The translations under genes were made by a program, and so were the position numbers. The notes below the pieces were generated by a model that was given only the letters and a program-made list of their open reading frames with translations, made no database searches and was not told where the DNA came from. DNA of 32,000 nucleotides from a cyanobacterium endosymbiont of Epithemia turgida isolate EtSB Lake Yunoko (lineage in GTDB: Bacteria; Cyanobacteriota; Cyanobacteriia; Cyanobacteriales; Microcystaceae): positions 2,430,001 to 2,462,000 of the forward strand of contig NZ_AP012549.1 in the NCBI RefSeq assembly GCF_000829235.1, read 5' to 3'. Positions 1 through 32,000 of the stretch are shown in pieces (positions within the stretch are counted from its first letter, which is position 1; every line of letters begins with the position of its first letter).

Positions 1-123
1 CAGACAAACTTATAAACTGTACATTGTGAGGGGTGCCTATGCGACACTAACAAGTTATGGCATCAAGTAAAAGTCTTTCGTTCTTAATCTTTATTATTAT
101 CTAGTTTAAGCAGGAGAACCTCG

Positions 124-192
124 ATGGAGCTCATATCTCTTTCCCTCATTTTGGCTGGAACTTTTCTGGCAGATTATCTCCTCTACAGTTAA
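124..192 (+). CDS. Candidate 22-aa hydrophobic micro-ORF (MELISLSLILAGTFLADYLLYS), or the N-terminal stump of a decayed gene
   Basis: ATG at 124 follows AGGAG (112-116) at 7-nt spacing, with TAA at 190-192. It is below the 60-aa cutoff of the ORF track. Downstream frames contain short protein-like stretches broken by stops, so a relic is equally possible. Confidence 0.2.
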   Translation: MELISLSLILAGTFLADYLLYS

Positions 193-380
193 GTCTAGAG
201 TATACTTACTTTCTGAAAAAACCTGCAGCAGCTAAATAAAACTGAGGCGCAGCCGTATTGCAAAGATAAGTCGCGGACTGTACCCGCGGGTGGTATATTT
301 ATCAACTCTTAGCTGTGATTTCAATCACCTTTTTAACAGCCTTAAGCTCCAAGAGAAGTTGAAGTTGGTTTTTTAGTATT

Positions 381-2363
381 TTAACTTTCTTTGAGAGACA
401 TGCAACTCTCTTGATATATAACTAAGTCAAACCAGAAAGTTGTTCCAACACCGATCTCACTAATCAGATGGATTCGACTATGGTGTTTATCAATAATGTT
501 TTTAACAATAGAGAGTCCTAGTCCTGTTCCTTCTAGCGTATGAACACGATTTTCCACACGAAAGAAACGGTCAAAAATCGCCTCTTGATCTTCGGGATCA
601 ATTCCAATCCCTGTATCAGCAATTTCTATTCTTACCTGAGGTTGATAGGTAGGATTATGAGGGCTTTTCGTAAGTTGATAAGCTCGAATCACGATTTTCC
701 CCCCCGCCTCAGTGAATTTTAAGCTGTTACCGACTAGATTGGTCATCACTTGAAGTAAAAGGTCGTAATGTCCTAGGATAGGGGTTAAATTTGGTTCTAT
801 TTCTTGAGTTAAGGTTAATTGTTTATCCTTAGCATTTAGTTGGTAAGTACGTAGAATTTGTTCGACCACCTGATTGATATCAACCCGATCAAGATGATAA
901 ATTTTTGAGGATTCTAAACGAGATAGATCAAGAACATCATTCACCAAACGAGTGAGGCGATCGGTTTCATTGTTGGCAGTTTCTAAGAATTCCTTACGTT
1001 CACTTTCCGTTAAGTCTTTGCCAAATTCACTTAAGGTTTCAATAAAAGATTTGATATTGAATAAAGGGGTTCTTAACTCATGGGAAACATTACTAATAAA
1101 TTGGCTTTTGGCTGCATTTAACTCCACTTCACGGGTAATATCTTGCGCCGTCATCGCAATACCTTTAAGGGTTTCGCGGTATTGGTCAAAAACTTGGGTT
1201 AAGAGAACCCGAATAATACGCTGGGTTGGTTGAGTTAGCGTAATACGGAACTCCCAAGGGGATCCCCCTTGGTGACTTTCGGAAATTTCAGAAAGTGATT
1301 CGGAGGAGTTTTTGTCTTTGTTTGTGTGAGTGTCTTCCTGAGCCATCTCGTGAAGAGGAGCTGTCAATTGCCAGGTTAATTCCGGGGACAAAAGTTCAAA
1401 GATATTGGTTCCAATGACATCTTTTCCTTCCCAACCAAACATCCGCCGTGCCCGTGGATTAACTAATAGTAATTGTAAGTTAGAATCAAGTAGAATGGCA
1501 CCATCAACTATAGTTGAAACGAGAGTTTCCAACTTAGCTTTCTCGGCGGTTAATTCTTCAATATTTTGTTCTTCATAGCGTTCAAGACGTTCAGCCATTT
1601 CGTTAAAACTGCAGATTAATTCTCCTAATTCTCCCTCAAAAGGTAGATTTATCCGTTGTTTAAAGTTTCCGGCAGCGATATTTTTGACTCCAACTAATAA
1701 TTCTTTAATTGGTCGGGTAATGGTTAAAGCGTTAAAAACAACCCCTAGAATAACCATAGCCCAAATAGCGACAAAAACTGCAATCGTAACATCCCGAGTA
1801 AGGTTGGAAGAATTTACCACTGTAGGATTAGGATTAATACCAATGGCGAGAATTCCTAAATAGTTACCGTCATGTTTCAATGGAACAAAAACATCAGTCA
1901 CCTTTCCATCAGGGCTGAGATGTTGACGGACAAGAGGAAGATTAATGTTTGTCAGATCAGTTTTAGGTAACTGGATATGCCGTTCAATGGTTAGAGAATT
2001 TTGAACTTCTGCGGCGGAATAGGGAATACCAAAGAAAATTTGACCATCGCAATCAGCATATATGATATAACGGACGCTAGAGGTACTTCGATAGAAGTGA
2101 CTGGAAATGCGGGCAACATCAGCTAAGTGATCTTCAGCGATCAGGTGAGCAACATTAGAAGCTAACAAAAGCCCCAAATCTCGGCCAAAACGAGTATCAT
2201 TCAATTGGGCTTCTTGCTGAATGCTATTGACTGCCCAAAAGGTTAACCCACTCATGAACAAAGAAACAGCTAGAGTAGCTCCTGCCATTAATCTGGTTTG
2301 TAAGGTAAACTCTGACCACCAGCGTCTAATAATTTTTTGAATTGTTGTCAAAAGTATCAGCAA
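381..2363 (-). CDS. nblS: Membrane sensor histidine kinase, Hik33/NblS/DspA type (2 TM, HAMP, PAS, HisKA, HATPase)
   Basis: 660-aa ORF with N-terminal TM segments and an H-box SHELRTPL. N/G1/G2 boxes are NLVGNSLKF, DTGIGI and GTGLGLS. The N-terminus (WWSEFTLQTRLMAGATL...NDTRFGRDLG) matches my recollection of cyanobacterial Hik33/NblS. The ORF-track start at 2363 is TTG, so the true start is uncertain. Confidence 0.85.
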   Translation of the reverse strand: MLILLTTIQKIIRRWWSEFTLQTRLMAGATLAVSLFMSGLTFWAVNSIQQEAQLNDTRFGRDLGLLLASNVAHLIAEDHLADVARISSHFYRSTSSVRYIIYADCDGQIFFGIPYSAAEVQNSLTIERHIQLPKTDLTNINLPLVRQHLSPDGKVTDVFVPLKHDGNYLGILAIGINPNPTVVNSSNLTRDVTIAVFVAIWAMVILGVVFNALTITRPIKELLVGVKNIAAGNFKQRINLPFEGELGELICSFNEMAERLERYEEQNIEELTAEKAKLETLVSTIVDGAILLDSNLQLLLVNPRARRMFGWEGKDVIGTNIFELLSPELTWQLTAPLHEMAQEDTHTNKDKNSSESLSEISESHQGGSPWEFRITLTQPTQRIIRVLLTQVFDQYRETLKGIAMTAQDITREVELNAAKSQFISNVSHELRTPLFNIKSFIETLSEFGKDLTESERKEFLETANNETDRLTRLVNDVLDLSRLESSKIYHLDRVDINQVVEQILRTYQLNAKDKQLTLTQEIEPNLTPILGHYDLLLQVMTNLVGNSLKFTEAGGKIVIRAYQLTKSPHNPTYQPQVRIEIADTGIGIDPEDQEAIFDRFFRVENRVHTLEGTGLGLSIVKNIIDKHHSRIHLISEIGVGTTFWFDLVIYQESCMSLKES

Positions 2364-3632
2364 GATAGACCCAAAATGGATAGTTTTACATTTCTATTGG
2401 TTGTATCACCTTATTCTAAATTGTAAATGACTTCTAAGCCTAGGATAATGGTCACTTCCTATGCTTCATAACTATCAATTTTTATAAAAAATATTCTACT
2501 ATAGATGGTAATCTTGTGAAGTGTGATGAAGCAGAATACGAGGTGTAAAGTTTTTTTGAATTAAACATTATAAAGTGTGGTGCTTATCAGTTTTGGGGTA
2601 TTATTGACACTATTGTTGTAATTTAGTCGGTTTTTATTGATGCAAACGTGAAAAAAGAGTTTTTATCCCTCATACCATGCCATAGCCGCTTTATAGTTAA
2701 ATTTTTAATCTAGTTTATGAGCTTTGATGAAAGATTTATCAATTATTTATTGAAATGTATGAATTATAGTTAGGTTTTATTTTCATATCTGTATTCATTT
2801 GCTTACCTTATCTTGAACTAGATTAAGTTCTAATTTACATCTCACTTATTTTTATCATCTATTTAGATGAAGTTTAGCTAAAACTGGTCATAGTAGACTT
2901 TTAATTAAAAATTGATAGATAAACTATATAAAAGCGTAGGTAATCGCTAAAGTTGAAGAGCAAAAAACTGACATAAAAGAGTAGATTATAGAAATAAAGG
3001 ATCAGTGTGGAGACTTATACATAAAAATCAAGTTTTATTTAGACTTCTACCTTTTTTTGTAACTAAGCCCAATATTCATATCATGATAATCTGTCTGAGA
3101 TGTATAACGATTTATTCAATGATCTGTAATCTAGTATTATGATTATAAATAGCTAAAAATTAACGATTTTTAGTTATATCAAGAAGGTATTAGTCAGTTG
3201 AAAGCCTAGAAATAGAGAAAGACGGTAAAATTATTTATTTAACATTCACAGTTTAGAATTATTTTTGAAATGATATAATCCAGTTTTTATACTATGCCTT
3301 GTCAAGACATAAATAATGGAGCTAAAGAGTTAATCGATGACTGATATTAAATCTGAAGAGATAACTTTCTTCAGATTTAACTTTAACCTTATTTTAGTTT
3401 TGGCGTATTTAAACTAAAATTTAATTCTCTTATTGTGATCTACTTATTTTTTAAAATATTTAGTCATTATTGAATAATTTCAAGTTAATCCGATATATGG
3501 TAGCTAATTGATTTATTCCCGACAGTACATATTGTAGGAAACCGGGCATAATGGAGCTCCTAAAGACATCAAAATGACGAAGTCGCTATCAACTGATGAG
3601 ACGAAAGAAATAGGTTAATCCTCTCCATAGAA

Positions 3633-4856
3633 TCAGATTATTGCCTCAAGTGTTGCTTCTAATGCAATGGAAATATGAGTCCAATGAGTTCCCCCTTGGC
3701 AAAAAACGATGTAGGGTTCTCGCAGAGGTCCGTCAGCAGAAAGTTCTGAGGTACTCCCATCCACAAAAGTTCCTCCAGCCATCACTAATTGACTCTCATA
3801 TCCTGGCATTGTGGCGGGAACGGGGTCTAAATAGGAACCTACTGGAGAACAACCTTGAATTGCTCGACAGAAGGCAATTAATTTTTCTGGAGAACCTAGT
3901 TGAATCGCCTGAATAACATCTTGACGGGGAACCAACGGCAACGGGTTAACAGGATATCCTAATTTATTGAAAACATAGGCAATTAAATGAGTTCCTTTTA
4001 CTGCTTCCCCTACTATTTGTGGGGCTAAAAATAATCCCTGAAATAACAACCGATTTTGATTAAAAGTTGCTCCTCCTTCTGTGCCAATTCCTGGAGCAGT
4101 TAAGCGACAAGCTGCCATTTCTACCAACTCTTTTTGTCCCGCAATATAACCTCCAGCTGTAACTAAAGTTCCCCCAGGATTTTTAATTAAAGAACCTGCT
4201 ATCAAATCTGCACCGACGGCTGTAGGCTCGATGGTTTCAATGAATTCCCCATAGCAATTATCTACAAAACAAACTGTATTGGGGTTTTGCCGTTTAATGA
4301 TAGCAATGATTTCTTTAATTTCTGCAATCGAGAGACTTTTACGCCAAGAATAGCCACATGAACGTTGAATCAAAACAAGTCGAGTATTGTTACTAATAAC
4401 AGTTTTTAAAGTTGCCCAATCAAGGGTTCCTGAATCAAGTAACGGCATTTCTCGGTAATTAATGTTAAACTCCTTCAAGGAACCTTGATAATTCCCTCGT
4501 AGACCAATAACCTCTTCTAGGGTGTCATAGGGAGAACCAGTAACTGACAACATCTCATCCCCTGGACGGAGAATACCGAATAAAGCACAGGTTATCGCAT
4601 GGGTCCCTGAGACAAATTGTACTCGGACGATAGATGTTTGAGCTCCCATAACTTTTGCAAAAACCTTATCTAGAGTTTCTCGTCCTAAGTCGTCGTGTCC
4701 ATAGCCACTAACACTCGCGAAATGGTGAACTCCAACCCGGTAAAGGCGAAAAGCACTTAAGATTTTTTTGAGATTTTGCTTGACCTTAGCGTCGATTTCC
4801 GAAAAAATTGGAAGGAGTGCTTTTTCGGCCTCTTCTAGGATCGTTTTGCTTTTCAT
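3633..4856 (-). CDS. PLP-dependent YnbB-like protein (methionine gamma-lyase / aluminum-resistance family)
   Basis: 407-aa ORF with an ATG start. Signature stretches SGYGHDDLGRETLDKVFA, SGTHAI, LRPGDE, PYDTLEEVIG, FVDNCYGEF and GSLIKNPGG are collinear with Bacillus YnbB-type proteins as I recall them. Confidence 0.8.
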   Translation of the reverse strand: MKSKTILEEAEKALLPIFSEIDAKVKQNLKKILSAFRLYRVGVHHFASVSGYGHDDLGRETLDKVFAKVMGAQTSIVRVQFVSGTHAITCALFGILRPGDEMLSVTGSPYDTLEEVIGLRGNYQGSLKEFNINYREMPLLDSGTLDWATLKTVISNNTRLVLIQRSCGYSWRKSLSIAEIKEIIAIIKRQNPNTVCFVDNCYGEFIETIEPTAVGADLIAGSLIKNPGGTLVTAGGYIAGQKELVEMAACRLTAPGIGTEGGATFNQNRLLFQGLFLAPQIVGEAVKGTHLIAYVFNKLGYPVNPLPLVPRQDVIQAIQLGSPEKLIAFCRAIQGCSPVGSYLDPVPATMPGYESQLVMAGGTFVDGSTSELSADGPLREPYIVFCQGGTHWTHISIALEATLEAII

Positions 4857-5103: not shown

Positions 5104-5928
5104 ATGACTGTGGCTACCTCCCAAAAACTTCCCTTCGACTGGACAGTTATCATATTCATGGCTACGATCCATCTAGTAGCATTACTGTCTTTGTTACCTA
5201 GCAATTTTAGTTGGGGAGCAGTTGGTGTGACATTTTTTTTATATTGGGTGACAGGAGCTTTAGGGATTACCCTAGGGTTCCATCGTTTGGTTACTCATTC
5301 TAGTTTTAAAGCTCCAAAATGGCTAGAATACGCACTTGTTTTTTGTGGAACTTTGGCCTGTCAAGGTGGACCCATCCGATGGGTTGGTTTACACCGACTT
5401 CACCACAAATATTCTGATACTGAAAATGATCCTCATGATTCCAATCTAGGATTTTGGTGGAGTCACATGGGATGGATGCTACATGAAATTACTGCTGATA
5501 ATGAAGTTCCCCGTTATACTCAAGATATCGAGGAAGAACCGTTTTATCAATTTTGTCAAAAGTATATGATTCCGATTCAAATGGCGTTGGGACTACTCCT
5601 TTATTTCTTAGGAGGATGGTCTTTCGTTGTTTGGGGAATTTTTGTTCGTTTAGTCATAGTTTTTCACTTTACTTGGTTTGTCAACAGTGCTACCCACAAA
5701 TTTGGCTATCAAAGTCATGAATCTAACGATAATTCTAGAAACTGTTGGTGGGTTGCTGTTCTGACTTTTGGAGAAGGTTGGCACAATAATCACCATGCTT
5801 ATCAGTATTCCGCCCGTCATGGTTTAGCTTGGTGGGAAATTGATATTACTTGGATTACCATTCAAGTATTAAAGTCACTGGGGTTAGCAACTAATATTAA
5901 ATTAGCTCCAAGTCGGGAAAATAATTAA
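5104..5928 (+). CDS. desC: Acyl-lipid delta-9 fatty acid desaturase
   Basis: 274 aa with an ATG start. Three histidine boxes (HRLVTH, HRLHH, HNNHH) and hydrophobic N-terminal helices are typical of membrane delta-9 desaturases. Confidence 0.85.
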   Translation: MTVATSQKLPFDWTVIIFMATIHLVALLSLLPSNFSWGAVGVTFFLYWVTGALGITLGFHRLVTHSSFKAPKWLEYALVFCGTLACQGGPIRWVGLHRLHHKYSDTENDPHDSNLGFWWSHMGWMLHEITADNEVPRYTQDIEEEPFYQFCQKYMIPIQMALGLLLYFLGGWSFVVWGIFVRLVIVFHFTWFVNSATHKFGYQSHESNDNSRNCWWVAVLTFGEGWHNNHHAYQYSARHGLAWWEIDITWITIQVLKSLGLATNIKLAPSRENN

Positions 5929-6074
5929 CTTTTAAAAGTTACCTAAATTTCCTGGGGTAAGCAATACCTATCTCAGAAAATTTAGGTAGTTTAGTTATTA
6001 GTCCTTACAATTACAATCGTAATAATTTCCCGTCAACTTCTCTAACGGATAATCCTATATTTTAAGTAATTATA

Positions 6075-6248
6075 TCAAAGAGGGTGATATTTAGTATAAA
6101 TACTCTGAATAATACTAAGTAAATCTGGTGCTAACTCAGAGAAAGGGTTAGGCTTTAGTAAATCTAAAAGAGGCAATTGTTTTGTTGCTTGAGTGAAGTT
6201 TAGAATTTTTATAATATCTCCAATAATTCCTCCGATGATTATTTCCAT
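6075..6248 (-). CDS. Unannotated 57-aa ORF (MEIIIGGIIGDIIKILNFTQATKQLPLLDLLKPNPFSELAPDLLSIIQSIYTKYHPL), function unknown
   Basis: ATG at 6248 and TGA at 6075-6077, read by hand. It is just under the 60-aa track cutoff and is the only long open frame in the 1.46-kb desC-fmt spacer. I recognised no motif. Confidence 0.2.
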   Translation of the reverse strand: MEIIIGGIIGDIIKILNFTQATKQLPLLDLLKPNPFSELAPDLLSIIQSIYTKYHPL

Positions 6249-7392
6249 CTTATTTTATGAATTTTATTTATAAATTTCTCTAAAAAACTTGTATTTATTT
6301 AAAATTAGAAGAATTAGGAAAAGTATAGACATTTTACCTGGATTGATTGACATAACGCGCTGTAATTAATGTATTATTTTTTTTATAATTTTTTATTATT
6401 GATTTATATTTTACCCTATAATAACATAATTCTGCACAGTGAAATAATTATAATTATCTAAAATTTATACGGTTTATATGGCAAATTTACTTCAAATTAA
6501 GCTCTGTTATTGAATATTTTGATGTAATTGATGATGATTTAGAAGTATATACTTGATCAAGTCCTATTCCTAACACAGTATAGGATTCCGTCTCCTGCCT
6601 CTAAAACAAAACTTCGTAATAAATAACTCCATTAATACCAGCAATCATTCCTTAAATTTTCATTAAATTATATTAAACCAAAGCCATACTAAACATTACA
6701 AGTCTAATGGCGATCATGTTCTGTGGATTAACAGGTACCGATAATTTTATTGAAAAATTGACCTGTCTTTGATAGTGTAGGAAAAGGGAATAGTTACTAT
6801 TGGCAGAAATACAAAAGTAAGGGTTTTTGATAAATGTCATTTAAGTAATTAAATACGATTAATTTAAAGTTATATATCAATGATTTTAAGCGGGATTTAA
6901 ACTCAATTACTTCTATTCTTGTTAATTTTTGTTTGCTTACCATCTAGATAGATTGTAAGTTCTTAAGATATTGTTCAATATACTTCAGTAATATAGGGCT
7001 GGCCCATTGTGTTTTTTTTATTACTAGCCAATAGGCTAATTTTAAATTTACTAATTTTTTAAAAAAAAGATTAACAATTAATTGATCACTAATCAAGCCA
7101 AAAACTTAGATGTTCTTTAACTGTCATCGAGTATAGATAAACTTTTCTTTAAGATGATCAAATAATAATGTCTGTCAACTTGTTAATACTGAAAAATGTT
7201 TATTAAATAAATTTAAAGAGCAGTGTAAAGTGTTTGAGCTGCTGGGTTACAGCGAATTATTTAATCAGATATTGTGATTAATTGATAATGATCGCCCACT
7301 CACTCTACGTCAAGGTTTAACATTTTGTCAATAAATAGGCTTTAAGATTGTATTAGGAGTATTCTTTCTACCTTCTTCCTTTCTTTTTTAAT

Positions 7393-8388
7393 ATGCAGGT
7401 TATTTTTTTTGGAACCCCAAAATTTGCCATCGCTACGTTGCAACGGTTGCTAAATCATCCTGATTATAAAGTTATAGGAGTTGTTACTCAACCCGATAAA
7501 CGACGGGGACGGGGTAATCAATTAGTACCCTCTGCTGTCAAAAAAGTTGCTCTACAACATAATTTACTTCTCTGGCAACCTAAAAGAATCAGAAATGCGC
7601 AAAAGATCCTCTCTGAGCTTAGAGAAGCCCAGGCAGATGTCTTTGTTGTGGTGGCTTATGGACAAATATTATCCCCTGAGATCTTATCTATTCCTAAACG
7701 AGGCTGTATTAATGTTCACGGCTCAATTTTGCCCCAATATCGCGGAGCAGCTCCTATTCAGTGGGGTGTATATAACGGGGAACAACAAGTAGGGGTTACT
7801 ACTATGTTAATGAACGAAGGAATGGATACAGGAGATATATTGCTTAAATCTGTGAAATATATTGGATTATTAGATAATTGTCAGCAAATTACTGAAGAAC
7901 TAGCTCAAAATGGGGCAGATTTGTTGTTAAAAACCTTACAAAAACTAGAAGTTGGGGATATTATTGCCACTGCTCAAGATCCAACAGAAGCCACCTACGC
8001 TCCACTAATTCAAAAATCTGACTATAAGATTAATTGGTCTAGATCCGCAATCGCCGTTCATAACCAAGTACGGGGATTTTATCCTAATTGTATCACCAAT
8101 TTCCGTGACCAATCCCTGAAAGTTATGGCGACCATTCCGTTAGAAGATATTGATTGGGAGTCTTTACCCTCTGCGTTTCAACCCCTTCGGCAACAAGCAG
8201 CAAAATTACCAACTTTTAAAGGAACCCCAGGGGAAATCATGAGTAACATTAAAAATTTTGGACCTGTGGTACAGACAGGAGAAGGACTGCTTCTCTTAAA
8301 AGAAGTACAATTATCGGGAAAACGCCGTCAGTCAGGGTGGGATTTTTTAAATGGAACTCGTGTAAACGTGGGAGAAAAATTTTTTTAA
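7393..8388 (+). CDS. fmt: Methionyl-tRNA formyltransferase
   Basis: 331 aa with an ATG start. N-terminal FFGTP..A and HGSILPQYRGAAPIQ motifs plus a C-terminal Fmt domain. Confidence 0.9.
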   Translation: MQVIFFGTPKFAIATLQRLLNHPDYKVIGVVTQPDKRRGRGNQLVPSAVKKVALQHNLLLWQPKRIRNAQKILSELREAQADVFVVVAYGQILSPEILSIPKRGCINVHGSILPQYRGAAPIQWGVYNGEQQVGVTTMLMNEGMDTGDILLKSVKYIGLLDNCQQITEELAQNGADLLLKTLQKLEVGDIIATAQDPTEATYAPLIQKSDYKINWSRSAIAVHNQVRGFYPNCITNFRDQSLKVMATIPLEDIDWESLPSAFQPLRQQAAKLPTFKGTPGEIMSNIKNFGPVVQTGEGLLLLKEVQLSGKRRQSGWDFLNGTRVNVGEKFF

Positions 8389-23519: not shown

Positions 23520-24128
23520 CTAATTAACAGTAGGAGGAGGATTGCTAGCCGAAGGACGACGGTTAATCACTTGGTCAATCAATCCATATTTTTGAGATTC
23601 TTCAGCGGACATGAAAAAGTCTCGTTCCGTATCTTGAGAGATTTGCTCAAGGGGCTTTCCTGTGTGATGTGCTAAGTGATTATTGAGGAGTTGCTTTAGA
23701 TAAAGAATCTCTCTAGCTTGAATTTCAATATCTGTGGCTTGTCCCTGGGCGCCTCCGAGAGGTTGGTGAATCATAATACGAGAGTTAGGCAAGCTCATCC
23801 TTTTTCCTTTAGCTCCTGCACTGAGAAGGAAAGCTCCCATGCTAGCAGCTAACCCAATGCAGATTGTAGAGACATCAGGACGGATTTGGTTCATAGTATC
23901 AAAAATTCCTAGTCCTGCTGACACAGACCCCCCTGGAGAGTTGATATAAAGATAAATGTCTTTTTCTGGATCTTCTGCTTCGAGGAATAATAACTGAGCA
24001 ACGATAAGGTTAGCATTTTCATCTCTGACCTCTTGTCCCAAAAAAACAATGCGTTCGCGTAACAGACGAGAGTAAATATCAAATGCGCGTTCACCACGCC
24101 CAGAAGTTTCAATAACGGTAGGAATCAT
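23520..24128 (-). CDS. clpP: ATP-dependent Clp protease proteolytic subunit
   Basis: 202 aa with an ATG start. Ser-His-Asp triad contexts are intact ([29 protein letters not shown]). The N-terminus reads [19 protein letters not shown]. Confidence 0.92.
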
Positions 24129-24742: not shown

Positions 24743-24924
24743 CCGCCCTTATTTAACTAATCTTTTAGTTAGAGCTAACATTATTAAAATTAGATAAACT
24801 ATTTTTAGGGTAATACACTTTTACTTTTGACATTGAGTGAGCGATATAGCTCCCTGATTCTACCGAGCCCAAAAAGTTTAATATTTATATAAATGTAACC
24901 GTTATTTAAAAATCACTTATTACT

Positions 24925-26219
24925 TTGACTTTGCTTAAAACCTCAGCGTTCAATGTTTCCACAATCCATATTCTTTCCAATGGGTTGACCATCATGGCTG
25001 AACAAATGCCAGTTAAAGTGATCAATTTAAACCTCTGGTTAAAAGTAATATCTACGTTGTAATTCAATTATCTTAATGGGATAGCGTATTTATTAGAATA
25101 TATGATTTTCAAAGGAATCTCTCACCTCAAAAGGAGAGAATTTGAACGATTACTTGAATAACAAGGAGCACTGACCAATGCAGCGACTCTCCAAGAGAGT
25201 ACTTATTACTACATCAATTGTGTGCTCCAAAATTTCAAAGACCTTGCCCCATTGCAATTAGATGTGATCTTTAATCCTAATATTGCTGATGAGGCATTTG
25301 AACGAGAACGGTTAGTAGTTTTAGAAGAAATCCACTGGTCGAATGATAATTCTCGTCTTGGGACTTTTTACAGGGCGATGGAGCCCTGTTTTAAGATTTT
25401 GCCCTATTGTCGTCGCGTGCTAAAACCAGCATCCACCATTAAAGGATTAATTGCCCAACAAATGCGAGACTTTCACAAAACTTAGTATCAACTTGAATTG
25501 GTAATAGCACTGACAGTAGGTAATCTTTCTGTAGAAATGTTAATTTACATTTTAGCGACGAGTTTGAGTCAAACCTGTAAGTATTCTAGAATTAAGCCCC
25601 AAAATAAGCAAAAGAGAAAAGAGGTTAAGTTTTTATTTAAAGTTTCTTTTGCTAGAATTGTGCGTCGGGAATTTGATGATTCCAGTGTACGGTAATCTCG
25701 CTTAATAATGATGTGGCAAGTTCCTGAGTTAGTTAAATTAGATAGAATCTATGCTTTGAATGTATTAGCAGTTATTTTAGGGCAGAGAAAAATCTCGCGA
25801 TTATGTCGGGATTTACGCGAAGACAAGAAGTTAGTTTCCCGTATTAACGTTAACAATATAACCCCCAAAATTTAAGACATATTTTATATATTAGCTCAAT
25901 GACTATCAGAAAATGTTCTGGAGGTGGAACGAATTATCATTGAGTAAATTACCAATATCAGGCAAATATCAGTGATTGAAACTGAATTGAATTGTGTACG
26001 AATTCAGGTAGCTAATCGGTTTGTATTTAGTAGTGAAAGTCCGAGCAATCGTACTCATCTTTATGGGGATTATTATTCTCAGTTACAGTATTTGGAATCA
26101 GCTTTGATCTATCCAATCGTATACAAGCTCTGAGTTTAGAAAATATCCAAGAAGCTGCTTTTGATTATTTGTCTTCTAAAAACTATAGGATTAAGGGAGT
26201 ACATTCTACTCATAAATAA
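24925..26219 (+). pseudogene. Pseudogene of an M16 (pitrilysin-family) zinc peptidase / processing protease
   Basis: A single frame from 24925 reads LTLLKTSAFNVSTIHILSNGLTIMAEQMPV...NGIAYLLEYMIFKG...LVVLEEI...QQMRDFHKT*YQ... There are in-frame stops at 25060, 25159, 25483, 25693, 25873, 25900 and 25945, and one frameshift near 26100. The natural TAA is at 26217-26219. The expected zinc motif HxxEH is YLLEY (TAT at 25087 and 25099). Track ORFs 25222..25485 and 25498..25695 are fragments of it. Confidence 0.85.
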
Positions 26220-26239: not shown

Positions 26240-27109
26240 ATGTGGACACAAATTGCTCAACATATTTCTCAGGCTACTCAACAGGAGTTTCGGACTAAAA
26301 ACCGACGTTCTGTTAATGGAGGTTGTATCAATCAATGTTACTCCTTAATTGGGGATAACATTACCTATTTTGTTAAAATCAACCAAGCTTCCCAGGTAGA
26401 AATGTTTGCGGCTGAAGCATTGGGTTTAAAACAGATATCAAACACTAAGACCATTCGTGTTCCTCAACCAATTTGTTGGGGAATAGCAGAAAAAACTAGT
26501 TACATTGTACTTGAATGGATGAAATTTGGTCGAGGGACTAATCAATTTTGGGAGGAGATGGGACGTAAATTGGGGACGATGCATCACCATCAAGGGGCTG
26601 ATCAATTTGGTTGGGAACAAAACAATACGATTGGTTCTATCTCTCAGATAAATATTTGGACTGATAGTTGGGCAGATTTTTTTGCAGAATACCGTATTGG
26701 TTATCAATTGAAGTTGGCAAGACGACGTGGGGGAAATTTTCCTGACTGTACTCAAGTTGTGGAAATGGTTAGGGAATTATTAGCCCATAGACAACCTAAA
26801 CCTTCTTTGGTACACGGGGATTTGTGGTCAGGAAATGTAGCGGTAACTCAGGAAGGAGAACCGGTTATTTTAGATCCTGCTACTTATTATGGCGATCATG
26901 AAGTTGATCTAGCGATTACAGAACTGTTTGGAGGATTTGGGCGTGGATTTTATAGAAGCTATAATGAAGTTTTTCCTTTAGAAAAAGGTTATCAAAAACG
27001 AAAAATGATTTATAATCTTTATCATATTATAAATCATTTTAATTTATTTGGAGGTGGATATAGAGCCCAGGTTAATCAAATGATTCAGAGAATTATAACT
27101 AATGGATAA
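26240..27109 (+). CDS. Fructosamine/ketosamine-3-kinase family protein
   Basis: 289 aa with an ATG start. It has the kinase motif LVHGDLWSGN, DPATYYGDHEVDLA and an N-terminal NGGCINQCY. It starts 20 nt after the stop of the M16 pseudogene. Confidence 0.85.
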   Translation: MWTQIAQHISQATQQEFRTKNRRSVNGGCINQCYSLIGDNITYFVKINQASQVEMFAAEALGLKQISNTKTIRVPQPICWGIAEKTSYIVLEWMKFGRGTNQFWEEMGRKLGTMHHHQGADQFGWEQNNTIGSISQINIWTDSWADFFAEYRIGYQLKLARRRGGNFPDCTQVVEMVRELLAHRQPKPSLVHGDLWSGNVAVTQEGEPVILDPATYYGDHEVDLAITELFGGFGRGFYRSYNEVFPLEKGYQKRKMIYNLYHIINHFNLFGGGYRAQVNQMIQRIITNG

Positions 27110-27170
27110 TGCTGAGATACTGAAAGTGTATACCCAAATTGAGGGCGATAGGTTACCTTATTATTAACTA

Positions 27171-27605
27171 TTATTTGGATTGACAATAACTATTTATTCT
27201 ATTTCCCAATTCTGGTTCTTTTTGACCTAATTGTTGCAGTTGCTGTTGCATCAACTTAACTGTGTTGATATCCTTTTTTTGTAATGCGAATATGAACTGC
27301 CGAGTTGTTTGAGCGTATCCTTGGTAAATATTAGCAAATTCTAGCTGATATTTAACTAAATTTTTATCATAAATAGATAGATTTCTCATCTCAGCTGCTG
27401 CTTTTTCAAAAGAGTCAGCCACTTGTAATGCTTTTTGGATATCTTCTGTTTTACGATTAGCGTGGCTTTCTTTAGCGATTGCTTGAGTAATTGAGATTAT
27501 TTTTTTACATTGAAAGACTCTATTTTCAGAACAACTAACTAAAATTATATTCGGCAAAATAATTAACAATAGAGCGATTATAAAAATTTTTTTAAAAAAA
27601 GTCAT
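27171..27605 (-). CDS. Orphan helical lipoprotein, function unknown
   Basis: 144 aa with an ATG start. It has a signal peptide with lipobox LVSC, and the remainder is helical and Q/K-rich. It lies 5 nt downstream of the preceding small ORF. Confidence 0.6.
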   Translation of the reverse strand: MTFFKKIFIIALLLIILPNIILVSCSENRVFQCKKIISITQAIAKESHANRKTEDIQKALQVADSFEKAAAEMRNLSIYDKNLVKYQLEFANIYQGYAQTTRQFIFALQKKDINTVKLMQQQLQQLGQKEPELGNRINSYCQSK

Positions 27606-27610
27606 TGTAA

Positions 27611-27892
27611 CTAATTAGAAGAAGTAGTACTGTTTACTAAAGTTCGGAGAATATTAGTTAGTTGAGTCAACTGCTCGTTTGATTCACTTTGCTTATCTAT
27701 TAAGGTTTGTATAGATTCAGTTAAAATAAATATTTGATATCTCTGCTGTTGTATTTGATTTTTTTGTCGTTCTATTTTTTTAGATACATCATTTATTTTT
27801 TTAGCTAATTCTTCTACTGTATTTGTAGTTGCAATTATGGCTTCTCCTATATTTTTTATGATGTTGGTTAATTGCTCAGTTTGATCACTCAT
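27611..27892 (-). CDS. Orphan 93-aa coiled-coil protein, function unknown
   Basis: The track calls GTG at 27910. I prefer ATG at 27892, which has AAGGA (27907-27903) 10 nt upstream. The GTG codon lies inside the 60-bp palindrome. The sequence is heptad-like and Q/E/K/I-rich. Confidence 0.5.
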   Translation of the reverse strand: MSDQTEQLTNIIKNIGEAIIATTNTVEELAKKINDVSKKIERQKNQIQQQRYQIFILTESIQTLIDKQSESNEQLTQLTNILRTLVNSTTSSN

Positions 27893-27899
27893 TATATTG

Positions 27900-27959
27900 T
27901 TTTCCTTCACAAAGCACCGATATTATTATATAATAATATCGGTGCTTTGTGAAGGAAAA
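27900..27959. promoter_or_regulatory. 60-bp perfect palindrome encoding mirror-image sigma70-type promoters (TTCACA-N17-TATAAT on both strands)
   Basis: All 30 pairs were checked (ttttccttcacaaagcaccgatattattat | ataataatatcggtgctttgtgaaggaaaa). Minus strand: -35 at 27953-27948 and -10 at 27930-27925. Plus strand: -35 at 27906-27911 and -10 at 27929-27934. The left arm contains the AAGGA ribosome-binding site of the downstream small ORF. Confidence 0.55.
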
Positions 27960-28044
27960 TTTCTGGGGTTTTGAAGTAATAGTTTAACAAGTTTATTAAT
28001 TTGGTAAGTTGACACTGAGTACAATCTACCCAAAATAGGTTTTA

Positions 28045-28074
28045 AGTTTACCTCACTTGTCCGTGAGGTAAACT
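28045..28074 (-). terminator. Hairpin terminator downstream of galE
   Basis: 12-bp perfect stem (28045-28056 / 28063-28074, agtttacctcac...gtgaggtaaact) with a 6-nt loop. It lies about 105 nt after the galE stop. In minus-strand sense it is followed by ttaaaacctatttt. Confidence 0.55.
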
Positions 28075-28179
28075 CTGTATTACTGGCCAAGTTCCTTAAT
28101 TTAAGCCATCATTAAGAAATATTAACCAAGCACAAATCTATAAGTTTGAAGAATTTTTAGCTAAAATTAGATATTTTTC

Positions 28180-29187
28180 TTACTTATTTGCATTTCCATG
28201 ACGTTTTTGATGCCAATACCAAGCATGATTAACAATTGTTTCTAAGTCTGGATACTTAGGTTTCCAACCCAGGGCAATCCGGGCTTTTTGGCTACTGCCG
28301 ACTAGGATAGGGGGATCTCCTGGACGACGATCATTTTCTTGAACTGGAAAATCGATCTGCGTTATTTTTTTAGCGGTTTCAATTACTTCGCGTACGGAAA
28401 ATCCATTGCCATTGCCCAAATTGAAAACATCACTTTTTCCTTCTTCTAAAAGGTATTCTAATCCTAAGACATGAGCTGAAGCTAGATCATCAACATGAAT
28501 ATAATCTCTAACTGCTGTTCCATCTGGAGTATCATAATCTGTCCCAAAAATAGACAGATAATTCTGTATTTTTAATGCTGTTAATAACGCTAAAGGAATT
28601 AAGTGGGTTTCGGGATGATGATCTTCTCCTAACCTTCCCTGGGGATTGGCTCCTGACGCATTAAAATAACGGAAAGCGACAGACTTTAAATTATAGGCTC
28701 GATCAAAGTCTTGCAAAATTTGTTCTATCATTGCCTTACTAACTGCATAGGGACTCAAGGGATTTTGGGGATGGTTCTCCATCATTGGAATTTGTTGAGA
28801 CATTCCATAGATGGCGCAAGTAGAGGAAAAGACAAACCTTTTGATGTTGGCAGCTAACATAGCTTCTAATAAAGTCAAGGTACCAACTACATTATTACGA
28901 TAATATCGACCAGGATTAGTTACTGATTCCCCAACAGCAATGTAGGCAGCAAAGTGCATCACTGCCGCAATGTCGTGGTGGGCGAAAAGTTTATCGAGTA
29001 CGGGACGATCATTCATATCTCCCACAATCAATTTAACTTGTAATACATCCTCAACAAATTCAGGATGTCCTTCGCTGAGATTATCTAAGATGATTACGTT
29101 GTATCCCGACTCTTGGAGAGCAAGTACAACATGGGAACCAATATACCCTGCTCCTCCTGTTACTAAAATAGTAGATTTTGTGACCAT
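28180..29187 (-). CDS. galE: UDP-glucose 4-epimerase
   Basis: 335 aa with an ATG start. It has the Rossmann motif TGGAGYIGSH, the catalytic YxxxK (SPYAVSK) and an SDR extended-family layout. Confidence 0.88.
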   Translation of the reverse strand: MVTKSTILVTGGAGYIGSHVVLALQESGYNVIILDNLSEGHPEFVEDVLQVKLIVGDMNDRPVLDKLFAHHDIAAVMHFAAYIAVGESVTNPGRYYRNNVVGTLTLLEAMLAANIKRFVFSSTCAIYGMSQQIPMMENHPQNPLSPYAVSKAMIEQILQDFDRAYNLKSVAFRYFNASGANPQGRLGEDHHPETHLIPLALLTALKIQNYLSIFGTDYDTPDGTAVRDYIHVDDLASAHVLGLEYLLEEGKSDVFNLGNGNGFSVREVIETAKKITQIDFPVQENDRRPGDPPILVGSSQKARIALGWKPKYPDLETIVNHAWYWHQKRHGNANK

Positions 29188-30005: not shown

Positions 30006-31676
30006 ATGCAGATTATTAATCGTATTCACTTCAGAAATCTACGGGGCGATATCTTTGGCGGAGTTACCGCAGCCGTGATTGCCCTCCCCATGTCCCTGGC
30101 TTTTGGAGTAGCTTCGGGAGTGGGAGCGATTGCCGGACTATGGGGGGCAGTATTAATTGGCTTTTTTGCTGCCTTATTTGGTGGAACACCCACCTTAATT
30201 TCTGAACCTACAGGTCCGATGACAGTAGTGATGACAGCTATTGTAACCAAGATGATTGCACAAAATCCAGAAAACGGCTTAGCCATGGCCTTTACTGTAG
30301 TAATGTTAGCAGGGATTTTTCAGATCATCTTCGGCTTGTTAAAGTTGGGAAAATACGTCACCCTCATGCCCTATACGATAATCTCGGGGTTTATGTCAGG
30401 CGTTGGAATAATTCTTATCATTCTTCAGTTAGGACCACTCCTGGGTCATGTTAACCCTAAAGGAGGAGTCAATGAGGCGTTGAAGGCACTGCCCTATTTT
30501 ATCACAACACTAAGTCCAACTGAAACAGCTTTAGGATTGTTGACAATAGCCATTCTTTACTTAATGCCCTCTAAAGTTAAAAAGTTTGTTCCCTCTCAAT
30601 TAATTGCCCTCATAGCAGGAACTTTAATTACAATTTTCTTTTTATCGGAAGCAGATGTCCATGTCATTGGCGAAATGCCTACGGGACTTCCTCAGTTATA
30701 TTTTCCTGCCTTTTTCCTCGGCCAAATTAATGAAATGTTGGTAGATGGTCTTGTTTTAGGGATGCTTGGTTGTATTGATGCTTTATTAACCTCTGTCATT
30801 GCTGATAGCTTAACTCAGACTCACCATGACTCTAACAAAGAACTAATCGGTCAAGGAATTGGGAACTTGGTTTCTGGGTTGTGTGGGGGACTTCCTGGGG
30901 CAGGATCCACCACGGGAACGGTGGTCAATATCCAAGCAGGGGGACGCACCGCTTTATCTGGTTTGAGTAGGGCTTTTATTTTGTTGATTGTAGTACTTTG
31001 GGCTGCTCCTTTAACCAAGAATATTCCCTTAGCGGTTTTAGCTGGTATTGTCCTTAAGGTGGGGATTGATATTATTGACTGGAAATTCTTAAAACGCGCT
31101 CACAGACTTTCAATTAAAGCAGCAGCTATTATGTATGGGGTAATGCTGCTAACTGTATTTTACGACTTAATCACGGCAGTTAGTCTTGGAGTGTGTATGG
31201 CTAATATTTTAACTATTCAACATTTAGCAGATATTCAATCCGATCTGGTCACAACAATTGATACGCCCGATGATAAGACTCTATTATGTGATACAAGCAG
31301 GCGTCTTATGGAAAAAGCTAACAGACGAATTATGCTCTTAGAGTTGAGCGGTCCTATGAGTTTTGGGGCAGCTAAAGCGATTACTCAAAGACAGGCAATT
31401 ATAGATAATTATGATGCTCTAATTATTGATTTAACGGGTGTTCTCTTATTGGGAGTAACAGCAACTTTGGCGATTGAAAAAATAATCGATGAGGCCGCTA
31501 AGAAATCAATAAAAATTTATATTATTGGGACTAATATAAAAATTAAAGAGCGATTACAAAAATTTGATATTTTTCAACGTATTCCTCCACAAAATCGTTT
31601 TGATAATCGAGTAGCTGCTTTGCATTTTGCGGTTGCTAAACTCGAAGAAGAAACACTACAAAAAATTGATACATAG
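30006..31676 (+). CDS. bicA: SulP-family anion transporter with C-terminal STAS domain, BicA-like (Na+-dependent bicarbonate transporter type)
   Basis: 556 aa with an ATG start. HFRNLRGDIFGGVTAAVIALPM, LGCIDALLTSVIADSLT..H.SNKELIGQGIGNL and GTVVNIQAGGRTALSG match my recollection of Synechococcus PCC 7002 BicA. The family assignment (SulP+STAS) is firm. Substrate is an inference. Confidence 0.8.
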   Translation: MQIINRIHFRNLRGDIFGGVTAAVIALPMSLAFGVASGVGAIAGLWGAVLIGFFAALFGGTPTLISEPTGPMTVVMTAIVTKMIAQNPENGLAMAFTVVMLAGIFQIIFGLLKLGKYVTLMPYTIISGFMSGVGIILIILQLGPLLGHVNPKGGVNEALKALPYFITTLSPTETALGLLTIAILYLMPSKVKKFVPSQLIALIAGTLITIFFLSEADVHVIGEMPTGLPQLYFPAFFLGQINEMLVDGLVLGMLGCIDALLTSVIADSLTQTHHDSNKELIGQGIGNLVSGLCGGLPGAGSTTGTVVNIQAGGRTALSGLSRAFILLIVVLWAAPLTKNIPLAVLAGIVLKVGIDIIDWKFLKRAHRLSIKAAAIMYGVMLLTVFYDLITAVSLGVCMANILTIQHLADIQSDLVTTIDTPDDKTLLCDTSRRLMEKANRRIMLLELSGPMSFGAAKAITQRQAIIDNYDALIIDLTGVLLLGVTATLAIEKIIDEAAKKSIKIYIIGTNIKIKERLQKFDIFQRIPPQNRFDNRVAALHFAVAKLEEETLQKIDT

Positions 31677-31905
31677 ATGGGTACAGGTGTAGTTAAGTTT
31701 TATACTAAAAAATCATCTATCAAAAATGATTCCACTTTAGTTCCGGAAATTTTATTGAAAAATCACTCTGTTCAACAGAGATTAATAAGTGTATGTAGAA
31801 TAAGAAGATGGGGTAAGTATTGTTTTATTTTTTTCAGAAGTATTTTGTTTTTTCAAAAAAATAACTACTAGTTAACAAACTATTTTAAATAGACAAAGAA
31901 TAATT

Positions 31906-32000
31906 ATGAAAATGTTTGAAGATGAAAAATTTTTGTGTTTTATTCACATTATTGAGAATTTTGTTTCTAAAGTATTGTCATTAGCTCTAATTCTTGTTAT
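31906..32000 (+). CDS. 5' end of an ORF running off the window (MKMFEDEKFLCFIHIIENFVSKVLSLALILV...), possibly PsiE-like membrane protein
   Basis: ATG at 31906, open to the window edge (31 codons). The resemblance to N-termini of PsiE-family proteins is from memory only. Confidence 0.3.
   Translation, partial: MKMFEDEKFLCFIHIIENFVSKVLSLALILV

Follow-up and report, generated by a model that had tools for sequence, protein, structure and literature searches.

The window, i.e., the whole 32,000-bp stretch of DNA analyzed here, is very probably a typical piece of the Epithemia turgida spheroid-body (EtSB) chromosome, the half-empty, AT-rich layout of which arose from the death of genes and their slow erosion after confinement to the host. 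EtSB, a nitrogen-fixing cyanobacterium related to Rippkaea, is a permanent inhabitant of a rhopalodiacean diatom. The window contains 15 intact ORFs with a summed length of 15,654 bp (48.9% of the total), and nine ORF-free blocks (1,269, 1,464, 2,083, 2,160, 2,149, 861, 2,119, 2,111, and 818 bp); the initial annotation, which put the coding sequence at about 15.7 kb and listed the same block lengths, was exact on both points. Its gene names (fmt, infC, msrA, S2P protease, clpP, and the rnr-lipoprotein pair) also hold, and Pfam identifies fmt, infC, msrA, S2P/M50, clpP, RNase R, and DUF3153. The GC content is 38.6% in the genes versus 29.5% in the non-coding DNA (34.0% in the whole window), and that of the individual ORF-free blocks ranges from 23% to 35%. 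In free-living SU2, approximately 87% of the syntenic 21 kb is coding, as summed from the gene table.

The fmt and methionine gamma-lyase-family (MetGL) proteins are identical over their full lengths to those deposited at NCBI for the E. turgida endosymbiont, and Logan contigs of SRR29904087 are 100% identical to the window. The nearest relatives are the spheroid bodies, SU2, Rippkaea, and Crocosphaera. The gene order is colinear with that of five other spheroid-body genomes (those of Rhopalodia gibba, R. gibberula, E. adnata, E. clementina, and E. pelagica), which also resemble the window in the places of their spacers and in having no intact transposases. The DNA identity is 86 to 91% to the endosymbionts of R. 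gibba, R. gibberula, and E. clementina and 97 to 98% to that of E. adnata, and single colinear blastn chains that include the spacers extend to loci L002 to L005, L082, L088, and L089 at 77 to 98% identity. The EtSB chromosome (2,794,318 bp, or 2.79 Mb; NZ_AP012549), which Nakayama et al. reportedly published in PNAS in 2014, is similar to the window in GC content (33.4% versus 34.0%) and in its gene-poor layout. At 0.47 genes/kb, the window is slightly emptier than the chromosome as a whole, for which 0.595 genes/kb has been published, compared with 1.06 genes/kb in Rippkaea orientalis PCC 8801 (PMC11131595); since the whole-chromosome value is likewise low, the window is not a local anomaly within a genome of normal density, a condition that the initial annotation had considered. 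The absence of operon partners, which had been taken as a sign of loss, is not really evidence for it, because the same genes adjoin unrelated genes in SU2, where the neighbors are not classical operon partners either.

The coordinates of the intact genes, gene remnants, repeat copies, deletion junctions, and conserved non-coding elements are listed in Table 1. The pairing of the RNase R and DUF3153 genes is kept in approximately 80 cyanobacterial loci, and the fructosamine-kinase-family gene, the 144- and 99-aa ORFs, and galE are all intact in three sister endosymbionts.

Table 1. Features of the window, in order of position.
Feature	Position	Strand	Evidence or remark
Sensor histidine kinase (HAMP-PAS-HisKA-HATPase), hisK	381..2363	-	Pfam domains on orthologous gene calls
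Repeat copy C	2900..3490	+	nhmmer E 3e-15 to 1e-25 against profiles of copies A and B
MetGL (methionine gamma-lyase-family PLP gene)	3633..4856	-	100% identity to E. turgida endosymbiont protein
Fatty-acid desaturase	5104..5928	+	Pfam FA_desaturase; neighbor order as in SU2 and Rippkaea
dprA pseudogene	5951..7084	-	At least 15 in-frame stops and at least 3 frameshifts; heavily eroded
fmt (methionyl-tRNA formyltransferase)	7393..8388	+	100% identity to E. turgida endosymbiont protein
DUF6464 pseudogene	8394..8752	-	2 stops, one frameshift; tblastn with SU2 protein, E 7e-20, two frames
Repeat copy A	9304..9770	+	Self-blastn against 11539-11916; nhmmer
Junction of ~2.9-kb deletion removing trmFO (GIDA-domain gene)	9771..9812		
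infC	10472..11002	-	Protein identical in E. adnata endosymbiont (CP076462)
Conserved island directly upstream of infC	11003..11132	-	~95-96% identical to E. clementina endosymbiont versus ~80% for spacers overall
Repeat copy B	11499..11959	-	Inverted relative to copy A; A and B flank infC
Alpha/beta-hydrolase pseudogene trace	12046..12108	+	tblastn E 4e-6 to an L088 ORF
msrA	13163..13825	-	Pfam PMSR
cobI/cbiL pseudogene (precorrin-2 C20-methyltransferase), 3' half	14383..14769	+	5'-truncated by deletion; 1 stop, 1 frameshift
Junction of 1,873-bp deletion	14387..14388		E. turgida-lineage-specific; removed half of cobI
Remnant of 114-aa conserved hypothetical gene	15170..15452	-	tblastn E 1e-18 to 1e-20
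Site-2 protease (M50)	15975..17459	+	
RNase R and DUF3153 gene pair	18321..21400	-	
Conserved non-coding element upstream of rnr	21744..21977		78% identical to SU2
slr1353-family pseudogene	22507..23391	+	~10 stops, one frameshift; NCBIfam slr1353_fam E 2.5e-60
clpP	23520..24128	-	
M16-family peptidase pseudogene	24910..26216	+	7 stops, one frameshift
Fructosamine-kinase-family gene, two small conserved ORFs (144 and 99 aa), galE	26240..29187		
SulP-family transporter	30006..31676	+	

Dead genes are the main recognizable content of the spacers. In six of the nine blocks, either a remnant is recognizable or a matching gene is intact in relatives; the claim that the spacers hold dead genes, which initially rested on two blocks, is thus strengthened by tblastn searches that found residual gene similarity at syntenic positions in these six and by synteny comparisons that mapped orthologues from sister endosymbionts and SU2 into the spacers. 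The remnant of dprA was matched by residues 18 to 402 of SU2 DprA over three reading frames (tblastn E 1e-13 and 3e-11), and the intact gene is found at the same position in SU2 and beside the desaturase gene in Rippkaea. An intact DUF6464 gene directly follows fmt in SU2. The cobI remnant corresponds to 243-aa ORFs kept intact by four sister endosymbionts (tblastn; NCBIfam PRK05948, E 1e-114), and the B12 pathway is reported to be almost completely lost in the endosymbionts of Epithemia sensu stricto. The 114-aa ORF is intact in the endosymbionts of R. gibberula, E. clementina, and E. pelagica. Similarly, the slr1353-family remnant matches 310- to 313-aa ORFs that the R. gibberula and E. clementina endosymbionts retain intact (tblastn E 1e-87), and many free-living relatives carry a gene of this family in the corresponding place. 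The M16 remnant shows 71 to 73% identity (tblastn E ~0) to 433-aa ORFs that are intact in the same two endosymbionts, together with below-cutoff NCBIfam matches (YfmH/YfmF and pitrilysin models) and a weak Peptidase_M16_C match on a fragment. Near the hydrolase trace, locus L088 carries two Abhydrolase fragments (17533-18168). Of the non-coding DNA, which totals 16.3 kb, named remnants account for only approximately 4.5 kb (28%). For the whole E. turgida endosymbiont, 137 to 225 pseudogenes have been reported (PMC5638926, 225; PMC11131595).

Other genes were removed outright. The 1,873-bp segment missing at the cobI junction is present in the otherwise closely similar (97 to 98% identical) E. 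adnata endosymbiont and in all four other endosymbionts. At the trmFO junction, window positions 9771-9812 correspond to L088 12422-12463 and positions 9807-9906 to L088 15331-15430; the 448-aa GIDA gene that lies between them (L088 12556-13902) is intact, as it is in the E. pelagica endosymbiont, and tblastn over the window detected no trace of trmFO. A further segment of approximately 0.8 kb beside the hydrolase trace (L088 17498-18316) is absent from the window and is found only in the endosymbionts of E. clementina (EcSB) and R. musculus, which represents either a loss or a gain, and the R. gibba endosymbiont has independently lost 1.3 kb. Since the split of the E. turgida and E. adnata lineages, small deletions (approximately 13) and insertions (10) have been nearly balanced, whereas the net change is approximately 1,935 bp deleted versus 64 bp inserted, dominated by the single 1,873-bp event. 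The proposal of reductive evolution without a strong deletion bias therefore stands as regards reduction and the near balance of small indels, but not for kilobase deletions (1,873 bp and ~2.9 kb), which are clearly at work.

Three blocks (2364-3632, 17460-18320, and 29188-30005) gave no protein signal in a six-frame Pfam scan. The second of these, with a GC content of 23%, does not match the TerD genes of SU2, which are located after the S2P gene there. Both ends of the third are conserved (islands 29240-29325 and 29907-29962), and these islands are probably the promoters of galE and sulP. We infer that the blocks without signal also arose by this gene decay and are of greater age. The initial annotation had regarded all the remaining blocks as old gene remains; this applies to the dead genes that largely make up the spacers, but not to a repeat of approximately 1.5 kb in total and to the lengthened spacer between hisK and MetGL.

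The repeat occurs in three copies of 0.47 to 0.6 kb in three different spacers (nhmmer E 1e-12 to 1e-25) and constitutes approximately 10% of the spacer DNA in the window. Paralogous copies are 56 to 62% identical and orthologous copies 73 to 82%. The endosymbionts of E. adnata and of E. clementina and R. musculus, i.e., of freshwater hosts, carry copies at the orthologous sites, and none is found in the earliest-branching, marine endosymbiont of E. pelagica, in SU2, or in any free-living locus examined. The hisK-MetGL spacer (2364..3632) is 1,269 bp long, compared with 203 bp for its counterpart in SU2 and 405 bp for that in the E. pelagica endosymbiont, and is about 1,275 to 1,350 bp in the endosymbionts of E. 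clementina and R. musculus; the extra part relative to the two outgroups is about 860 to 930 bp (roughly 2517-3440) and shows no similarity to the IS630 transposase that adjoins MetGL in Rippkaea. The interval between rnr and the slr1353-family remnant is also longer than in a free-living relative (~1,250 bp versus ~600 bp). Because at least two intervals exceed their length in the free-living relative, the additional DNA does not derive from gene decay in situ, and because the repeat is absent from the outgroups and the hisK-MetGL spacer is lengthened, not all spacer DNA consists of resident gene remains. A second spheroid-body-specific segment (21980-22300), found in freshwater spheroid bodies and absent from SU2, the only outgroup compared, has a paralogue in L088 just to the left of the region corresponding to the window (E 3e-26).

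It is conceivable, although we consider it somewhat less probable than the contrary, that a substantial share of the spacer DNA is decayed repeat or mobile-element debris that spread after the onset of symbiosis on the stem of the freshwater endosymbionts, which would complement gene decay rather than replace it. The distribution of the repeat, the lengthened spacer, and the duplicated segment are consistent with this idea, as are the 18 dead IS elements reported in the E. turgida endosymbiont (PMC5638926). On the other hand, the consensus of the repeat has no ORF and no transposase or Pfam signal (copy A was negative in six frames), and neither terminal repeats nor target duplications were recognizable. 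Moreover, the copies all lie within approximately 25 kb, for which a local segmental duplication would account equally well; a metagenome scan for further copies returned chance matches only; independent deletions of the repeat in SU2 and the marine endosymbiont are possible; and even true repeat debris would amount to only the above tenth of the spacer DNA here. The proposal that repeat families expanded in the endosymbiont genome after symbiosis began, and that some of the spacer DNA is their fossil, is accordingly tentative and rather unlikely. If it were true, spheroid bodies would have experienced a burst of duplications or mobile elements, in line with what the classical model of endosymbiont reduction predicts, and this would contrast with the current view of an early and total loss of mobile DNA with no expansion.

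The rate at which the spacers evolve is that of neutral DNA. Relative to EcSB, the spacers diverge by 19.5% and four-fold degenerate sites by 18.7% (n = 1,953), a ratio of 1.04, and the spacers show no codon-position pattern. The genes diverge by approximately 6%, 4%, and 15% at codon positions 1, 2, and 3, respectively; the corresponding values for the histidine kinase are 0.050/0.021/0.166, and the second positions of infC are invariant. The spacers thus evolve neutrally, and purifying selection acts on the retained genes. Against the E. adnata endosymbiont, the spacer-to-four-fold ratio is 1.8, a value that is probably inflated by an excess of A:T>C:G changes confined to the spacers of that assembly. 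Substitutions polarized to the E. turgida lineage (40 GC>AT at 2,497 GC sites and 45 AT>GC at 6,431 AT sites) give an equilibrium GC content of approximately 0.30, and the observed spacer GC content is 0.28 to 0.295. Blocks with recently killed genes have a GC content of 0.32 to 0.35, compared with 0.23 to 0.28 in signal-free blocks.

These rates bear on the parallel drawn in the initial annotation with Trichodesmium erythraeum, a free-living, filamentous cyanobacterium with a GC content of approximately 34% and roughly 60% coding DNA, which belongs to a different lineage and is not the source of the window. In that organism, the intergenic DNA is conserved or expressed, whereas the spacers of this spheroid body are the neutral rubble of dead genes, many of them demonstrably broken; because they evolve at the neutral rate and are not conserved, the analogy is superficial. 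A reading in which the spacers are maintained for expressed, conserved non-coding functions could draw on the positions and sizes of the blocks, which are broadly kept among endosymbiont lineages, and on short conserved islands, most of which lie within approximately 150 bp upstream of genes. The island upstream of infC is probably its promoter or 5' UTR, and the element of approximately 230 nt upstream of rnr, which is not an ORF and has weak support for a conserved structure, is detectable out to free-living SU2, Crocosphaera, and Cyanothece. However, the bulk of the spacer DNA diverges at the synonymous rate, the spacers take nearly all indels (thousands of gap columns against EcSB versus at most about six in the genes), and single lineages have lost kilobase spacer segments while the neighboring genes remained unaffected. 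No Rfam family reached its gathering score in the window, where E ≤ 1 yielded only chance matches to models of microRNA hairpins (one at 27900-27959, where the DNA forms a palindromic hairpin, and another, with an E of 0.76 very weak, at 13007-13051), and no tRNA genes were found. The rate test largely refutes such a functional expansion, which we regard as highly improbable.

It is just as improbable that the spacers conceal small proteins or genes with unusual starts, programmed frameshifts, or recoded stops, since, although they contain 30 ORFs of 45 to 87 aa, one of which (9146-9286, minus strand) is open in EcSB as well, none outside the known pseudogenes is convincingly kept open there (all others, apart from pieces of the M16 and slr1353-family remnants, are interrupted), the pseudogenes carry 7 to 15 stops of mixed type plus frameshifts, and the divergence is neutral with no codon periodicity. 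The emptiness of the spacers is genuine and not an artefact of ORF calling.

Gene death followed by slow erosion thus remains the preferred explanation. Confinement to the host very probably made many genes dispensable, here dprA, the DUF6464 gene, trmFO, the alpha/beta-hydrolase gene, the B12 gene cobI, the 114-aa ORF, the slr1353-family gene, and the M16 peptidase gene, which were inactivated by frameshifts and stop codons. The dead genes then drifted at the neutral rate toward the AT-rich mutational equilibrium, mostly beyond recognition, while removal of dead DNA is slow and patchy, with shrinkage mainly through occasional kilobase deletions. Such slow and patchy removal explains why isolated housekeeping genes with short promoter regions stand amid 1 to 2 kb of rubble. 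The underlying cause would be weak selection or drift in a host-restricted population.

A low coding density due to degraded gene fragments has been described for all spheroid bodies, EtSB and its relatives included (PMC11131595; Abresch et al. 2026, bioRxiv 10.64898/2026.03.19.712447; the former is Abresch et al. 2024), and the window offers nothing new in kind in this respect. Gene losses are idiosyncratic in each spheroid-body lineage; cobI, the slr1353-family gene, the M16 peptidase gene, and trmFO are dead or deleted in the window and intact in at least one sister lineage. A model of early-stage genome reduction in host-restricted bacteria is said to have been set out by McCutcheon and Moran in 2012. 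Mycobacterium leprae, Sodalis glossinidius, 'Nostoc azollae', and Richelia intracellularis have pseudogene-rich genomes in early reduction and are recently host-restricted; similar to the window, these genomes are approximately 50% coding, with eroded pseudogenes, AT drift, and housekeeping genes amid neutral DNA. Unlike spheroid bodies, which are syntenic and have no active elements, they are usually rearranged and rich in active IS elements. Within the window, the gene order is conserved, no active IS proliferation or rearrangement was seen, the Pfam scan and the comparison with the Rippkaea IS630 transposase gave no transposase signal in the spacers, and the only repeat is old and decayed. 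Spheroid bodies are a published exception to IS proliferation in early reduction (Abresch et al. 2026), with only transposase fragments or dead IS elements reported, and we found no mention of a decayed dispersed repeat in the spheroid-body genome literature compared.

The repeat is the only potentially new element of the window and bears on a past mobile-element phase. The window is otherwise of value as a clean view, at the level of a single locus, of which genes died and which were deleted outright, with rubble that evolves at the synonymous rate and lies at equilibrium GC content and with shrinkage by rare kilobase deletions instead of a steady bias in small indels. Spheroid bodies are among the few young, organelle-like, N2-fixing endosymbionts, and their half-empty but stable genomes put models of genome shrinkage to the test.

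The 15 intact ORFs of the window sum to 15,654 bp, or 48.9% of its length, by the ORF list and by direct count, in agreement with the approximately 15.7 kb of coding sequence in 32 kb proposed in the initial annotation, and the nine ORF-free blocks that it described (1269, 1464, 2083, 2160, 2149, 861, 2119, 2111, and 818 bp) were all exact in length. The GC content is 38.6% in the genes, 29.5% in the remainder, and 34.0% in the whole window, in which no tRNA genes were found. When the gene tables were summed over the syntenic interval of approximately 21 kb in relatives, the coding fraction was about 87% in SU2, a free-living unicellular cyanobacterium; about 61% in the endosymbiont of the marine Epithemia pelagica; and about 47% in the E. 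clementina / R. musculus endosymbiont, with 49% in the window.

The genome is that of a spheroid body (diazoplast), i.e., a diatom-confined N2-fixing cyanobacterial endosymbiont, and the earlier analogy with Trichodesmium therefore concerns the wrong organism. Its fmt and methionine gamma-lyase-family proteins match those deposited at NCBI for the E. turgida endosymbiont with 100% identity. The nearest relatives of its RNase R are found in the endosymbionts of Rhopalodia gibba, R. gibberula, and E. clementina (96% identity), followed by those of the E. pelagica endosymbiont (92%), SU2 (87%), and Crocosphaera and Cyanothece (72-77%). The colinear DNA, including genes and spacers, is 96.8-98.0% identical to that of the E. 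adnata endosymbiont (CP076462) and 86-91% identical to that of three Rhopalodia / E. clementina endosymbionts. Published phylogenies put SU2 nearest among free-living cyanobacteria, with the marine endosymbionts branching earliest (PMC11131595); the published size of the E. turgida endosymbiont chromosome is 2,794,318 bp (PMC5638926, PMC11131595).

Every block was set against the matching interval in the sister endosymbionts and SU2. Recognizable gene remnants are held by six of the nine blocks, which bears out the reading of the spacers as largely dead genes; non-coding DNA totals 16.3 kb, and approximately 4.5 kb of this is named remnants. In Rippkaea orientalis PCC 8801, dprA also adjoins the same pair of desaturase and methionine gamma-lyase-family (MetGL) genes. 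The block that begins with the DUF6464 pseudogene ends at the junction of a deletion of approximately 2.9 kb that took trmFO, which the endosymbionts of E. pelagica and E. clementina / R. musculus still carry undamaged between fmt and infC; no trace of trmFO (GIDA) was found in the window by tblastn with the gene of the E. pelagica endosymbiont as the query. Approximately 0.8 kb beside the alpha/beta-hydrolase trace is also absent from the window. The cobI gene and the 114-aa ORF are both intact in four sister genomes, and the 5' half of cobI was lost in a 1,873-bp deletion that is not present in the 97-98% identical E. adnata endosymbiont. This loss agrees with the published loss of B12 synthesis in the endosymbionts of Epithemia sensu stricto (PMC5638926). 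The R. gibberula and E. clementina endosymbionts retain undamaged copies of the slr1353-family and M16 peptidase genes.

Features of the window and their coordinates
Feature	Coordinates	Strand	Observation
Signal-free block	2364-3632		No match to Pfam or relatives' neighboring genes
Repeat copy	2900-3490	+	Right half of the excess block between hisK and MetGL
dprA pseudogene	block 5929-7392		SU2 DprA residues 18-402 aligned over three frames, at least 15 stops
DUF6464 pseudogene	8394-8752, start of block 8389-10471		Intact directly after fmt in SU2
46-aa ORF	9146-9286	-	
Repeat copy	9304-9770	+	Inverted pair with the next copy, flanking infC
Repeat copy	11499-11959	-	Inverted pair with the preceding copy
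alpha/beta-hydrolase trace	block 11003-13162		63 bp left; already broken in E. clementina endosymbiont
cobI (precorrin-2 C20-methyltransferase), 3' half	block 13826-15974		Intact orthologue NCBIfam E 1e-114
114-aa ORF wreck	block 13826-15974		Disrupted in the window
Signal-free block	17460-18320		No match, as for 2364-3632
slr1353-family pseudogene	block 21401-23519		About 10 stops plus frameshifts
Conserved non-coding element	21744-21977		About 230 nt, 350-580 nt upstream of rnr
Endosymbiont-specific segment	21980-22300		Lengthens rnr-slr1353 intergenic region
M16 peptidase pseudogene	block 24129-26239		7 stops plus frameshifts
99-aa ORF	27611-27910	-	Open in all four endosymbionts
Palindrome	27900-27959		Perfect, 60 nt, 28-bp stem
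Signal-free block	29188-30005		No match, as for 2364-3632

The three signal-free blocks yielded nothing by six-frame Pfam (cut-off of E ≤ 0.05-0.1, with the same negative result for the repeat copies) or by tblastn. The tblastn searches of the window also gave no trace of the SU2 TerD genes, of the ORFs at the Rippkaea fmt locus (including CobU and the DNA polymerase III delta' gene), or of the Rippkaea methyltransferase and IS630 transposase, and the 852-aa gene of SU2 gave only a negligible 14-aa chance match (E = 0.019).

The spacers diverge from the E. clementina endosymbiont at 19.5% of aligned sites, compared with 18.7% at four-fold degenerate sites (ratio of 1.04), and the divergence at codon positions 1, 2, and 3 is about 6%, 4%, and 15%, respectively. 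In the same alignment, gapped columns number in the thousands in the spacers versus at most approximately six in the genes. The small ORFs of the spacers carry interruptions in the sister genome; the exceptions are fragments of two genes that are alive there and the 46-aa ORF. Apart from pieces of known pseudogenes, the latter is the sole spacer ORF that stays open in the E. clementina endosymbiont as well; its conserved openness is probably due to chance. Conserved islands are short and lie nearly all directly upstream of infC, the site-2 protease (S2P) gene, rnr, clpP, galE, sulP, and the start of slr1353, as is expected of promoters and 5' UTRs. On the E. turgida branch, polarized substitutions comprise 40 GC>AT and 45 AT>GC changes, which gives an equilibrium GC of approximately 0.30. 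The signal-free blocks have a GC of 0.23-0.28, at or slightly below this equilibrium, and the blocks with recently killed genes are richer in GC (0.32-0.35), so that composition serves as a rough clock of decay. A pooled two-lineage equilibrium of 0.37 was set aside because of an A:T>C:G excess in the E. adnata spacers and parsimony mis-polarization. Over window positions 450-19183, compared with the E. adnata locus, 53 A:T>C:G changes fall on the E. adnata branch and 17 on the E. turgida branch. This excess is confined to spacers and absent from genes, and reflects either a mutator signature specific to the lineage or errors of assembly or polishing where the DNA of that record is AT-rich.

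Two further elements were observed. The palindrome (-46 kcal/mol in its local context) lies downstream of galE and abuts, on the upstream side, the probable ATG of the 99-aa ORF; the sister endosymbionts carry imperfect palindromes of other sequence at the same spot, so that the hairpin character is kept. No Rfam family reached the gathering score in the window, and the hits at E ≤ 1 were all chance matches to microRNA models, this hairpin being the only scoring feature besides a very weak match at 13007-13051 (E = 0.76). The 99-aa ORF, which probably starts at the ATG at 27893 and not at the GTG at 27910, has a spacer-level GC of 28% and an atypical divergence of 0.18, 0.08, and 0.11 at codon positions 1, 2, and 3. 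The element upstream of rnr contains several invariant blocks, is 95% identical in the E. clementina endosymbiont and 78% identical in SU2, and is detectable in Crocosphaera and Cyanothece. A small-ORF reading was rejected, since a start codon is absent and relatives do not keep the frame open. RNAalifold gave weak structure support (covariation term of 0.35, 2 compensatory pairs), and the element could represent either a regulatory region or an RNA that has not been described.

Part of the spacer DNA does not fit simple in situ decay, namely the hisK-MetGL excess, a dispersed repeat, and the endosymbiont-specific segment. The interval between the sensor histidine kinase gene (hisK) and MetGL is 203 bp in SU2, 405 bp in the E. 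pelagica endosymbiont, 1,269 bp in the window, and approximately 1,300 bp in the E. clementina endosymbiont, and the excess of 0.86-0.93 kb is a single block. In Rippkaea (L092 7583-8581), an intact IS630-family (DDE_3) transposase gene lies immediately downstream of the MetGL orthologue, at the position of the unexplained insertion in the window; its similarity to the window spacer is undetectable. The AT-rich repeat (approximately 0.47-0.6 kb) occurs as three copies in three spacers, with nhmmer E values of 1e-12 to 1e-25 and identities of 56-62% between paralogues and 73-82% between orthologues. The freshwater endosymbionts of E. adnata and E. clementina / R. musculus carry it at orthologous sites, and it is absent from SU2, every free-living locus examined, and the E. 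pelagica endosymbiont; a further match is listed at positions 11-171 of the E. clementina / R. musculus locus (L088). Its consensus lacks an ORF and any Pfam or transposase signal, and clear terminal repeats are not visible in the alignment. A default-seed repeat search returned only AT-rich chance matches and missed this old repeat, which was found by sensitive blastn and nhmmer. When metagenomes were scanned with a degenerate 23-mer taken from the repeat, 13 AT-rich contigs came back, all of them unrelated chance matches and none a repeat copy. The endosymbiont-specific segment, which adds approximately 650 bp relative to free-living relatives, is paralogous to a stretch between leuA and hisK, immediately beyond the left edge of the window (L088/L089 2403-2676; nhmmer E = 3e-26). 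The repeat and this segment may be mobile-element fossils or local duplications, and repeat-derived sequence makes up a minor share of the spacers.

Indels were polarized over 18.7 kb between the E. turgida and E. adnata endosymbionts, for which that of E. clementina served as the outgroup. The events comprise approximately 13 deletions and 10 insertions, with approximately 1,935 bp deleted versus 64 bp inserted, nearly all in the one 1,873-bp event, the junction of which has only approximately 2 bp of microhomology. More kilobase differences appear in deeper comparisons, and orthologous intervals differ two-fold among lineages; e.g., the msrA-S2P interval measures 2,149 bp in the window, the E. 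adnata endosymbiont has 3,984 bp there, and the remaining lineages have 3,878-5,188 bp. The R. gibba endosymbiont is without approximately 1.3 kb of the infC-msrA spacer (window 11628-12954) that the endosymbionts of both E. turgida and R. gibberula have kept; here another lineage has independently lost rubble on the kilobase scale. The absence of a strong deletion bias, as initially suggested, thus holds for small indels only and fails for kilobase deletions: shrinkage is real but episodic.

The finding is a correct rediscovery of a published property of this genome. Abresch et al. (2024) described low coding density in all spheroid bodies and ascribed it to fragments of degraded genes (PMC11131595). 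Nakayama and Inagaki (2017) reported 1,720 coding genes, 225 pseudogenes, and 18 dead IS elements in the E. turgida endosymbiont (PMC5638926), and low coding density is the title finding of Abresch et al. (2026) for 22 further genomes, which have 0.58-0.68 genes/kb, high synteny, and no intact transposases (bioRxiv 10.64898/2026.03.19.712447). The interpretation first proposed is thus partly supported: its mechanism was right, but beyond the mistaken analogy, its picture of deletion was incomplete and it did not include the repeat-derived part of the spacers. The decayed repeat family is a modest lead.
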